A DNA stretch of 64,000 nt from a virus. Under the pieces are notes generated by a model. That model saw nothing but the letters and a program-made list of their open reading frames with translations. It made no database searches and had not been told where the DNA came from. A program made the position numbers and the translations under genes. The stretch is from the IMG/VR virus record IMGVR_UViG_3300021139_001840, positions 1 through 64,000 of that record; one strand, given 5' to 3'. Positions 22,293 to 53,667 of the stretch are shown here, piece after piece; positions within the stretch are counted from its first letter, which is position 1; each line of letters begins with the position of its first letter.

Positions 22293-22324
22293 AGTAGTAT
22301 GAATAGCAAATTTGGATTGATTTG

Positions 22325-22720
22325 ATGACGATGCATTTGGAAGGGCCGTGGTTAAGCACTACAGGCAAACAAAAGACCAAACGTAAGTGGACAAGTTCTG
22401 AAGCTAAGAAGTTAGCTGAAAAACGACAAGCTGAGTGGGATCGCAAGTTAGTTGAGTTTGATAAACTTGCTCCCAAATTCAGCACTGGGCCTTACAATGC
22501 TCCCCGAAAAACTATGGCAGATTTCATGCCCAAAACTCCCCCGGGTCGTGAAACTCCTCGAGTTCAATCACAGGACACAGGATGGGTGGCTTGTGTAAAA
22601 GTTAAGGATAACGAATATACTGGTGATGCTGTAGTCGGAATAGCGCAAATGGCAAAATCTAATGCAGTCCCTGTATTTGACTCTGACCATATTGTAGAGA
22701 TCGCTAGGATGCGGCGATAA
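22325..22720 (+). CDS. Hypothetical phage protein
   Basis: MTMHLEGPWL...KSNAVPVF...IARMRR. Confidence 0.75.
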   Translation: MTMHLEGPWLSTTGKQKTKRKWTSSEAKKLAEKRQAEWDRKLVEFDKLAPKFSTGPYNAPRKTMADFMPKTPPGRETPRVQSQDTGWVACVKVKDNEYTGDAVVGIAQMAKSNAVPVFDSDHIVEIARMRR

Positions 22721-22763
22721 TATTTACACAGGTAATAAGATGATAGGGATAAATAAAGTTACT

Positions 22764-23654
22764 ATGAGTAAACCATTTAAACCTACCACACTTTATATCA
22801 AGACCCATAATGTTACGGGACTTAAATATTTTGGCAAAACAACAGGAAACCCATTTGAATACCGCGGCTCCGGGATCTATTGGACGGCACACCTTAAAAA
22901 ACATGGCAATGATATTACTACAGAAATTCTAGGTTATTATACTGATAAAGACGAATGCATACAAGCCGCTAATTTGTTCTCTACTGAAAATAATATTGTT
23001 AAGGCCGTGAACGAAAATAATAAAAAGATATGGGCTAATCAAATTATCGAAAACGGCATCGATGGAGGAGCAACTTGGTTCGGCCCGCGCCCAAGAGAAA
23101 TGGTGGAAAGAATCGCCGCGAAACAACGAGGAGTACCAAAATCATTACCTCCTGAAGTAGCTAAAGCCGCCGCAGAAAAGGGATTGGCTACACGAGCAAA
23201 AAATGGAACTCTTCGAAAAAAAGGTGAGTGGAAATTCCCTGAAGCAAGTAAGCAAAAGTTAAGAGACGCTAATTTAGGCAAAAAACAATCCAAAGAAACT
23301 ATTGAAAAGCGCCGAGCTAACTTAATAGGAAAAAAACGTCCCGAAGTGGCAGCAAAGTTACGTGGCAGAACACATACACTAGAAGCTAGAGCTAATATGA
23401 AAGCGGCCCAACAAAATAAAGGGCCGTTAACTAAAGAAACCAAGCAAAAAATAAAAGCGGCACGAGCAAAACAGCAGAATGTTAAATCGTGGGGCGAACA
23501 AAATCAAGGCAAAGTAATAGTTATCGATAAAGAAGGAATAATGAGTCGAATACCAAAAGAACAGTATTATGCTCAAACGGGTCCAAAAAATGATTGGGAA
23601 TGGTTAAGTCATAAATCAGCCGATGCTAACGCTCGTAAGCTAAGTAAAATATAG
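22764..23654 (+). mobile_element. Free-standing GIY-YIG homing endonuclease with NUMOD3-like repeats
   Basis: LYIKTHNVTGLKYFGKT...YRGSG; repeats GKKQSKETIEKRR and GRTHTLEARANM; TAAATA promoter at 22750. Confidence 0.85.
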
Positions 23655-23665
23655 GGAGAATAACG

Positions 23666-23884
23666 ATTTCAAAAGACAATATTATTAAAATGGATGGTGT
23701 AATCACCGAGGTGCTACGCAACACTAACTACAGAGTTAAACTAGACAATATGGAAACTCCTATACTGGCTACATTATCCGGTAAAATGCGTATGAATAAT
23801 ATTAAAGTATTAGAAGGCGACGTTGTAGAATTAGAGCTCAGCCCATATGATTTAACTAGAGGCAGAATTTCTCGCCGTAGATAA
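23666..23884 (+). CDS. infA: Translation initiation factor IF-1, probable ATT start
   Basis: SGKMRMNNIKVLEGDVVELELSPYDLTRGRI; GGGAG SD 7 nt before in-frame ATT gives 72 aa. Confidence 0.92.
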   Translation: MSKDNIIKMDGVITEVLRNTNYRVKLDNMETPILATLSGKMRMNNIKVLEGDVVELELSPYDLTRGRISRRR

Positions 23885-23892
23885 ATAACTTT

Positions 23893-24444
23893 ATGAACAC
23901 ACTACGCAAAGACATTAATTTAGTAGAGGCTACTACTAAACCAGCCAAATTAGAAACAACCCCACTGCCTTATACACACAAGGCGCTTGAACCAGTAATG
24001 TCAGCTGAAACTATAGAATATCATTTTGAGCATCTTGCCAAAGGATACGCTAAAAAATACAATGCTGGGGAAGGGAATCCTGACTTTAATCGTGCGGGCA
24101 GTTTCTTGCACAACAAGTTTTTCCCACAACTTCGTGCGCCCAAGGGTGCTAATCGCCCTAAAGGTGCTGTGTTAGAATTAATTGAAACTAATTTTAAAAC
24201 TTACGAAGATTTTAAAATAGCATTTAAAAAGGTGGCCATGGCCATCCAGGGAAGTGGATGGTCCTATCTCTCTACATCGGGCACGATTAAAACCATCCCA
24301 AACCATCAGGTGCGGACAGATGTCGCTCTTTTGCTTGATATGTGGGAGCATTCGTTCGTTTTAGACTATCTCTGGGACAAAGAAAAATATATAGATAACT
24401 TCTGGAAAATAGTAGACTGGAATGTCGTAAACGAACGGCTTTGA
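23893..24444 (+). CDS. sod: Fe/Mn superoxide dismutase
   Basis: LPY...LEP.MS.ETIEYH, LHNKFF, GSGW, DMWEH, DWNVVNERL. Confidence 0.9.
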   Translation: MNTLRKDINLVEATTKPAKLETTPLPYTHKALEPVMSAETIEYHFEHLAKGYAKKYNAGEGNPDFNRAGSFLHNKFFPQLRAPKGANRPKGAVLELIETNFKTYEDFKIAFKKVAMAIQGSGWSYLSTSGTIKTIPNHQVRTDVALLLDMWEHSFVLDYLWDKEKYIDNFWKIVDWNVVNERL

Positions 24445-24474
24445 CATAAATACTTGTGGGAACACACAAGAACA

Positions 24475-25122
24475 ATGTCAAAAAATTATAGAAAAGTATT
24501 TGAACGTTATCATCAATGTTGTTTATTACCGGGTGTAGATATACATCATATAGACGGCGATCATAACAATAACCATCCTGAAAATTTACAAGCAGTTACA
24601 TTACAAGAGCATTATGATATTCATAAATCTCAAAATGATCATTATGCCTGTTACATGATTGCTACTCGTATGGATATTAAACCAAACGATTGGATAGAAA
24701 TGGCAAGGATCAATGGCCGTAAGTCAGCTATTAAAAACAAAGATAACGGAATTGGATTATTATCTTGGATAAAAAACAATCCTGAATTAGCACAAAAACA
24801 AAGATCAGATAGCGGAAAAGTTGGCGGCAAAAAATGTGCTGATGAAAAGATTGGATTCCATGGGTTATCTAAAGAACAAAAATTAGAAATAGCATCGCAA
24901 GGTGGTAAGAAAGCCGCTGAACTTGGATTGGGATTTAAGGCAGGACACGCATCTCAGGCAGGTAGAGTTGGTGGTAAGAAAGGCGGGCAATGGGCCAAAG
25001 AAAACAAGTCAGGAATTTTTGCTCTCACACCTGAGCAAATAAAAGCAAAAAATCAAAAAGCGGCAATAACTAAACTTATTAAAAACGGCAAAGCCTGTCG
25101 TTATCCAAAGGAAACCATATGA
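24475..25122 (+). mobile_element. Free-standing HNH endonuclease with Gly/Lys repeats
   Basis: DIHHIDGDHNNNHPENL....EHYDIH; GGKK repeats; TAAATA at 24447. Confidence 0.85.
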
Positions 25123-25445
25123 TTACTATTACAGAATCCGCTAATGCTAAGATTAAAGACATTATAGCTGAAGAAAACAACCCTGATTTAAAATTAAGGG
25201 TGTTTATACAAGGTGGTGGATGTTCTGGATTTCAAACAGGCTTTACTTTAGATGATACCCAAGCAGAAGACGATTGGGATTTTGAAGCTGATGGGGTCCA
25301 CGTGCTTGTAGATTCCATGAGTGGCGGCTATTTGGCGGGCGCTACAGTGGATTACAAAGAAGATATACACGGTGCGGCGTTTACAATTACCGGTATGGAC
25401 GCTAAAACAACTTGCGGTTGCGGCTCCAGTTTTTCACCCTTTTAA
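25119..25445 (+). CDS. erpA: A-type Fe-S carrier (ErpA/IscA/HesB family)
   Basis: [12 protein letters not shown]...TTCGCGSSF. Confidence 0.9.
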
Positions 25446-47154: not shown

Positions 47155-47167
47155 GCTAAATATTACA

Positions 47168-49058: not shown

Positions 49059-49072
49059 CACTAAATATATTA

Positions 49073-53638: not shown

Positions 53639-53667
53639 TACTAAAAATATAATACGCTAAATACAGT

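Follow-up and report, generated by a model that had tools for sequence, protein, structure and literature searches.

The window analysed here, which spans the first 64 kb of a virus record of 96.8 kb in IMG/VR (IMGVR_UViG_3300021139_001840), carries on its + strand an infA gene (23666..23884) for a bacterial-type translation initiation factor IF1, and comparison with related sequences indicates that this gene very probably has its main start at an AUU codon (ATT, 23666..23668). Three infA start designs, of which the AUU type is one, are interchangeable within a family of large phages and none of them is fully strong; in the window the AUU codon sits on a mosaic module linked to a homing endonuclease gene located immediately upstream. 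We give a probability of about 0.7 to this explanation taken as a whole, namely a functional IF1 started at AUU through one of three weak start designs carried by a mosaic start module. The comparison set consisted of 82 unique related infA alleles from viral contigs (designated here by L numbers), to which a scan of metagenomes added contig L208.

A probable AUU start codon in a phage infA gene

The infA reading frame is open from 23648, being closed upstream by a TAA (23645-23647), and the in-frame codons that follow this stop (AAT ATA GGG AGA ATA ACG ATT) lead without any ATG, GTG or TTG to an internal ATG (Met9, 23690..23692), which has no ribosome-binding site upstream and from which gene callers obtain a product of 64 amino acids. 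A Shine-Dalgarno sequence, GGGAG (23654..23658), precedes the ATT by 7 nucleotides (nt; 23659-23665), with a predicted pairing energy to the 3' end of the 16S rRNA of -9.0 kcal/mol, and from the ATT the gene has 72 codons and a TAA stop (23882-23884). Position, spacing and length all agreed with those claimed for this start in the initial annotation. The stop codon of the upstream open reading frame (ORF), that of the endonuclease (TAG, 23652-23654), shares the first G of GGGAG, and a TAAGTA sequence (23641..23646), a variant of a TAAATA late-promoter-like motif and a putative promoter element, is found 19 nt before the ATT. The leader around the infA start had a less stable fold than shuffled controls (z = +1.67), and no conserved RNA structure was found when one was looked for around this start.

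The Pfam profile PF01176 (IF-1/eIF-1A, S1-like OB fold) covered residues 7-71 of the product (73.6 bits, cut-off 30.2), so that the domain would lose its first two positions with a start at Met9. The phage protein matched twelve distinct PDB IF1 sequences with E values from 5.5e-19 to 4.5e-9 (residues 2-71 against chain residues 2-70), and solved bacterial IF1 chains of 71-73 residues (1AH9, 1HR0, 5LMN and 2N8N) aligned to its residues 2-71 or 5-71. Because the alignment to the solved proteins begins at residue 2, the 72-codon length and the N-terminal homology are real, and the N-terminal octapeptide is, by this comparison, homologous to the tail of bacterial IF1. The earlier proposal that the ATG at 23690 cuts the conserved N-terminus was thus upheld by the structural alignments as well as by the two lost domain positions. 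The ORF is predicted to encode a functional, bacterial-type IF1 with a role in binding to the 30S A site and in initiation.

Selection on the protein was evident from two pairs of alleles. Between the window and the ATG allele of contig L002 (3001-3216), IF1 residues 2-72 were identical (71/71) at a synonymous divergence (dS) of ~0.72, purifying selection of unusual strength for an accessory gene of a phage. The alleles of L023, starting with ATC, and L024, starting with ATT, differed by a dS of ~0.68 with a ratio of non-synonymous to synonymous divergence (dN/dS) of ~0.06, and their codons 2-8 specified the same peptide by means of different synonymous codons, indicating that the N-terminal extension is translated in the ATT/ATC lineage. 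The 64-amino acid protein called from the ATG at 23690 was present in identical form on 9 contigs from three sources in the protein records, making a private assembly error unlikely.

Six other unique alleles carried a start codon of the same kind: ATT in L004, L022 and L024, ATC in L023 and L208, and ATA in L043. None of them had a canonical in-frame start upstream of this codon, and all the alleles of the class keep AT at the first two bases and vary at the third base alone, as expected for a codon read by the initiator tRNA. These codons recur at the infA start in at least three separate sequence contexts, and the window start module is homologous to the one in three other contigs. In L022 and L208 the position of Met9 is occupied by Leu and the next canonical in-frame codons are codon 34 and codon 13, respectively, so that in L022 a start at the first such codon would cost the protein half of its fold. 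A single mutation or a sequencing error, kept as an alternative in the initial annotation, was not borne out, since the whole module differs from that of the closest ATG relative (ATT TCA with a ribosome-binding site in the window, ATG AGT without a site in the relative) and recurs in relatives. All these comparisons support well the location of the infA start at the ATT, which we propose would be read by the initiator tRNA with the aid of a strong Shine-Dalgarno sequence at optimal spacing in an unstructured leader, likely giving a modest IF1 output.

Three start designs in the phage family

Among about 80 infA alleles the start codon was TTG in ~55%, ATG in ~37% and ATT/ATC/ATA in ~7% (6/82 unique viral alleles, or 7 when the metagenome contig L208 is counted). 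Counted at the same loci, infA started with ATG in 30 cases, TTG in 44, GTG in 1 and ATT/ATC/ATA in 6. The upstream gene of 132 amino acids started with ATG in 67 and TTG in 2 (GTG and ATT/ATC/ATA in 0), the superoxide dismutase gene with ATG in 75 (others 0), and the downstream gene of 108 amino acids with ATG in 67 (others 0). The flanking genes thus have ATG in 97-100% of the loci (67/69, 75/75 and 67/67), and the variability of the start is specific to infA.

Each class of start codon had its own leader. The ATG alleles showed a mean pairing energy of -1.0 kcal/mol, with 0/30 at -6 kcal/mol or stronger and a ribosome-binding site in 0/29, and the motif TAA(A/G)TA lay 5-9 nt upstream of the start in 23/24 of those bearing it. 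The TTG alleles paired at -5.5 kcal/mol on average, 49% of them at -6 kcal/mol or stronger; their ribosome-binding site was missing or, in all 20 of the 20 alleles having one, was 11-14 nt away, and TAA(A/G)TA, where present, was at least 22 nt upstream. The ATT/ATC/ATA alleles reached a mean of -9.0 kcal/mol, with 6/6 at -6 kcal/mol or stronger, a GGAG-type site 5-8 nt from the start in 7/7, and TAA(A/G)TA, where present, at least 17 nt upstream. No infA allele paired an ATG with a well-placed ribosome-binding site; for comparison, 22% of the ATG genes of the window pair at -6 kcal/mol or stronger.

According to these data, a first design consists of an AUG without a ribosome-binding site, 5-9 nt past TAA(A/G)TA, and the closeness of this motif to the start makes the ATG alleles look leaderless or nearly so. 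A second uses a UUG whose ribosome-binding site is absent or 11-14 nt off. The third, that of the window, joins AUU, AUC or AUA to a strong site at 5-8 nt, the handicap sitting in the codon itself. The simplest reading looks to be that selection holds the initiation of IF1 synthesis weak or conditional.

The TAAATA motif is strongly enriched just upstream of genes in the window (17 observed against 1.4 expected), with examples at 23882-23887, 47157-47162, 49062-49067 and 53658-53663, and ends 4-7 nt before the ATG of five genes, the superoxide dismutase gene among them. The first of the examples overlaps the infA stop codon and lies 5 nt before the ATG of the superoxide dismutase gene. The arrangement suggests that genes adjacent to TAAATA may be expressed from leaderless or near-leaderless late transcripts.

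Two features of codon usage were observed around the infA start. In the TTG alleles of L084, L085, L105, L107 and L147 the two Arg codons with which the upstream gene ends (ATG AGG AGA TAA, MRR-stop) form the ribosome-binding site of infA, and in alleles that have no site, whether they start with ATG or with TTG, these Arg residues are encoded by CGN/AGA, such as CGT AGA or CGT CGC; synonymous choice in one gene therefore sets the ribosome-binding site of the next. The codon for Ser2 (23669-23671 in the window) is TCN in 5/6 phage ATT/ATC/ATA alleles having this residue and AGT/AGC in 28/29 of the ATG/TTG alleles having it; in bacterial infA it is mainly TCN. The TCN bias could reflect a shared ancestry of the module or a preference for U at position +4 after a weak start codon.

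Origin of the start module

A 304-codon ORF (22740-23654, + strand) lies in the window between the gene for the 132-amino acid protein (22322..22720, + strand; phrog_27048, ending in MRR-stop) and infA. The latter two genes are directly adjacent in most relatives, the upstream gene being conserved and the insert absent. The ORF showed homology to homing endonucleases by a match to phrog_314 (E=3.8e-10) and a weak match to NUMOD3 (E=0.005), and no Pfam nuclease domain was found in it above threshold; its conserved start is probably the ATG at 22764. It is absent from L002, where an IF1 99% identical to that of the window starts with ATG AGT and has no ribosome-binding site. It is present in L023 and L024, whose infA genes start with ATC and ATT, respectively, at an amino acid identity of 84-85%, the flanking genes being only 60-76% identical to those of the window. 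Both the presence or absence among close relatives and the higher conservation than the flanks are characteristics that point to a free-standing homing endonuclease gene, whose product would be expected to cut alleles lacking the gene at a specific site.

Nucleotide identity changed abruptly along this region. The endonuclease gene of the window was 83% identical to that of L024, and is missing from L004 and L002. At the junction (23640-23674) the window was 85% identical to both L024 and L004 and 73% identical to L002 over only 22 aligned bases, whereas over infA codons 4-72 it was 66% identical to L024 and to L004 and 88% identical to L002. This switch between segments indicates a recombinant start module whose breakpoint lies near codon 3; by the sequence comparison, the body of IF1 comes from an AUG-type background, and the start module (ribosome-binding site plus ATT TCA) is linked to the upstream endonuclease gene. 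Most likely, co-conversion of the DNA next to the endonuclease gene brought the module in along with that gene. In L004 the homologous module of ribosome-binding site and ATT TCA occurs in the absence of the endonuclease gene, implying that the module either predates this insertion or can outlive it.

The possibility that the endonuclease had captured the original infA start, since both begin with ATG AGT AAA, was ruled out, as the endonucleases of the relatives begin with MGK or MKQ behind a conserved upstream element of their own. A second homing endonuclease gene, 43% identical, was observed in the same gap in L075 (2102-3000), inserted slightly further upstream; there the 3' end of the upstream gene is duplicated after the endonuclease gene, and infA keeps its native TTG start module intact.

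Alternative explanations

Several observations weigh against the explanation proposed above. Conservation of ATT/ATC/ATA in related infA genes, the check suggested in the initial annotation, gave a mixed outcome: six other alleles carry such a codon, but most relatives have ATG or TTG, which is literally what had been said to count against an AUU start. A non-canonical start conserved across relatives, as would be looked for in an infC-like case, was not seen in infA. As the ATT/ATC/ATA codons are in the minority and the closest relative has ATG, AUU itself seems not to be required for function. Met9 is present in the window, and some or all of the product could begin at 23690. The allele counts are phylogenetically non-independent, and in a weakly resolved tree of the superoxide dismutase (65 rows) at least 16 changes of start class were counted, of which the well-supported branches force only 2. 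Finally, only TAAATA, and not TAAGTA, is enriched upstream of genes in the window, leaving TAAGTA as a putative promoter.

With a start at the AUG at 23690, IF1 would have 64 residues and lack the N-terminal tail, and the eight codons before this AUG would be a recent relic of an ancestor started with ATG or TTG. This codon is the sole canonical start in the frame, it is the one picked by gene callers, 64-amino acid calls are common in the protein collection, and the shortening costs just two positions of the Pfam domain. However, it has no ribosome-binding site before it, GGGAG being positioned for 23666; L022 and L208 lack Met9 and would require ATT or ATC for a full-length product; codons 2-8 are conserved at the protein level over a dS of ~0.7 in the ATT/ATC lineage; and many IF1s of phages and bacteria have Leu, Ile, Ser, Val or Gln at position 9. 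We regard such a start as improbable. Somewhat less improbable, though still unlikely, is that AUU is a mildly harmful passenger dragged in by homing and co-conversion of the endonuclease gene, leaving infA under-expressed and the codon devoid of regulatory meaning. The breakpoint at about codon 3, an endonuclease 84-85% identical in amino acids on backbones whose flanks are only 60-76% identical, and a closest backbone (L002) with ATG and no endonuclease gene would all fit. Yet ATT-type starts also occur without the endonuclease gene (L004, L043, L022 and L208), a strong ribosome-binding site at 5-8 nt is kept in every ATT/ATC/ATA allele, IF1 is under strong purifying selection in the endonuclease-linked lineage, and a weak start is the norm of the family, not a defect, as no allele has a fully strong one. 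Translational coupling, complementary to the explanation proposed above, would have ribosomes that terminate on the endonuclease ORF, 11 nt upstream, re-initiate at the AUU by means of the adjacent ribosome-binding site; it may contribute, but we consider it less likely than not that it accounts for most of the use of AUU. The endonuclease stop codon overlaps the infA ribosome-binding site, and an upstream ORF ends 9-19 nt before the ATT/ATC/ATA codon in L004, L023, L024 and L043; in L022, on the other hand, the nearest upstream in-frame stops are 27 nt off with an AT-rich spacer, and infA could have a transcript of its own from the TAAGTA that lies within the last part of the endonuclease gene.

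IF3 treats AUG, GUG and UUG as canonical and, supported by IF1, discriminates against some non-AUG codons; the AUU or AUC codon of infC is the target of IF3 autoregulation, and in vitro an AUU mRNA whose start region had been optimised gave 0.74 of the AUG level, with extra IF3 selectively depressing it (PMC5499595). As AUU, AUC and AUA are proofread by IF3 with the help of IF1, an IF1 started at AUU would plausibly respond to host IF3/IF1 activity, and the output of the window gene is probably tied to it. The initial annotation had gone further and proposed a feedback sensor on host translation, with phage IF1 being made solely when the activity of initiation factors falls. In a dedicated sensor of this kind, the synthesis of phage IF1 would rise when host IF3/IF1 proofreading falls and drop when it is high, as in infC autoregulation. 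No IF3 gene was found in four relatives that are 93-100% complete, and it is host IF3 that would act as the sensor. The ATG alleles, which are probably leaderless, would share this sensitivity, since IF3 also antagonises leaderless AUG starts. Nevertheless, ~55% of the alleles use UUG, which IF3 accepts, a further point against our explanation in so far as it leaves a family-wide IF3 sensor unsupported; the ATT/ATC/ATA codons are found in only ~7% of the family and are not conserved even between phages with identical IF1; and an IF1 identical at the 71 post-start residues is encoded by a plain ATG allele in a close relative. The AUU start is very likely real, but the sensor is only partly compatible with the pattern of the family; such feedback is plausible by analogy with infC, and we consider a dedicated sensor doubtful. 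Sensitivity to IF3 is a possible extra property of the AUU design within a broader weak-start rule. The most encompassing version, in which IF1 synthesis would be wired to host initiation fidelity through AUU-type and leaderless AUG starts, both sensitive to IF3/IF1 and with an output inverse to host proofreading, while homing endonucleases shuffle the modules, seems to us hardly likely.

Comparison with other systems

The closest parallel is infC of E. coli and other bacteria, also an initiation-factor gene with an AUU-type start and IF3 proofreading supported by IF1 (PMC5499595). It differs in that the odd codon of infC is reported as the target of autoregulation, whereas the phage infA codon is one of three alternating designs, present in ~7% of relatives; moreover, the phage product is IF1 and not the proofreader IF3. 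A non-canonical start on an initiation-factor gene is of a known kind, and to it the present results add the three-design start rule together with the endonuclease-linked mosaic. Literature searches turned up no description of a phage infA gene with a non-AUG start.

The metagenome scan yielded mainly cellular infA genes and few close phage relatives, and the cellular genes served for comparison with bacteria. Among 80 bacterial genomes, the infA start was ATG in 60, TTG in 13 (mostly Clostridia, in which TTG predominates), GTG in 5, ATC in 1 and CTG in 1, so weak infA starts are not unique to phages. Non-ATG starts nevertheless made up 25% of this bacterial sample compared with ~63% of the phage family, and among the phages the start region changes far more from one close relative to the next. 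Among the cellular genes, apparent ATC starts were noted in a Gemmatimonadota metagenome-assembled genome (MAG; L312) and in contig L230, the two being similar at the N-terminus. Apparent CTG starts were seen in a deltaproteobacterial MAG (L321) as well as in contig L224, which at the N-terminus matches an Actinomycetota MAG (L361); each of the four starts (L312, L230, L321 and L224) is behind a ribosome-binding site with no canonical alternative nearby.

Stand-alone IF1-like proteins with 49-54% identity are also present in other large phages, namely Lak Prevotella phages, Sinorhizobium phage Phosso and Bacteroides DAC phages, although these belong to other phage lineages and have other gene neighbourhoods. 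No ATT/ATC/ATA start was found in the two true phage records checked, Phosso and DAC16. The IF-1 of Phosso is annotated with a TTG start, a resemblance to the present family, and the DAC16 protein departs from it by an ATG start and a long N-terminal extension. In a record of Acinetobacter phage MD-2021a, infA starts with ATG; this is probably bacterial DNA.

With regard to the endonuclease gene, the free-standing Seg/Mob homing endonucleases of T4-like phages are likewise intergenic genes present or absent between near-identical backbones, are more conserved than their flanks and travel together with a short flanking tract; here, however, it is the start codon and ribosome-binding site of the adjacent gene that the putative co-conversion would replace. 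The leaderless and split-site starts of T4-like phages resemble the ATG alleles, 5-9 nt past the late-promoter-like motif, and the TTG alleles, with a site 11-14 nt away, but the window allele has neither arrangement, being leadered, with optimal spacing and an unconventional codon.

Source genome and neighbouring genes

The window phage is a large freshwater phage with its own IF1 gene. The record has an estimated completeness of ~28%, and relatives sharing the gene block are 320-353 kb long, four of them 93-100% complete. A family B DNA polymerase, a clamp loader, baseplate and tail-fibre proteins and a Lon-like protease are encoded in the window, which is a piece of a T4-like jumbo phage genome with 38% G+C. 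A blastn search of an annotated phage collection with the window DNA found no close relative, and a pattern scan of viral contigs (GGAG, a gap, then ATTTCAAAAGA) returned mainly chance matches, the L022 contig being its only recovery.

The block formed by the 132-amino acid gene, infA, the superoxide dismutase gene and the 108-amino acid gene (window 22322-25445) is kept across the jumbo-phage family (loci L002-L081). Its three intergenic gaps are insertion hot spots, at which relatives hold other inserts of 0.5-2.5 kb; in the window, the homing endonuclease gene occupies the gap preceding infA and an HNH endonuclease gene (24454-25122) the one that follows the dismutase gene. The product of the latter, an Fe/Mn superoxide dismutase (gene at 23893..24444, + strand), matched the C-terminal domain in full and the N-terminal hairpin domain only at positions 5-44 of 82, so its N-terminal domain may be shortened or divergent.

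Significance

Gene finders shorten the IF1 of the window and of several relatives to 64 residues or miss the true start, and the family is consequently misannotated in public collections. That about 80 alleles never join an ATG to a well-placed ribosome-binding site, while the neighbouring genes nearly always have ATG, provides an unusually clean natural case of selection against strong initiation, and the three natural start designs of the family are open to direct comparison with reporters. A mobile endonuclease gene seems able to exchange the translation start module of its neighbour, which would be a little-noticed route for selfish elements to alter expression. For the phages themselves, the weak-start pattern suggests that they have to keep the dose of their own initiation factor low or conditional.

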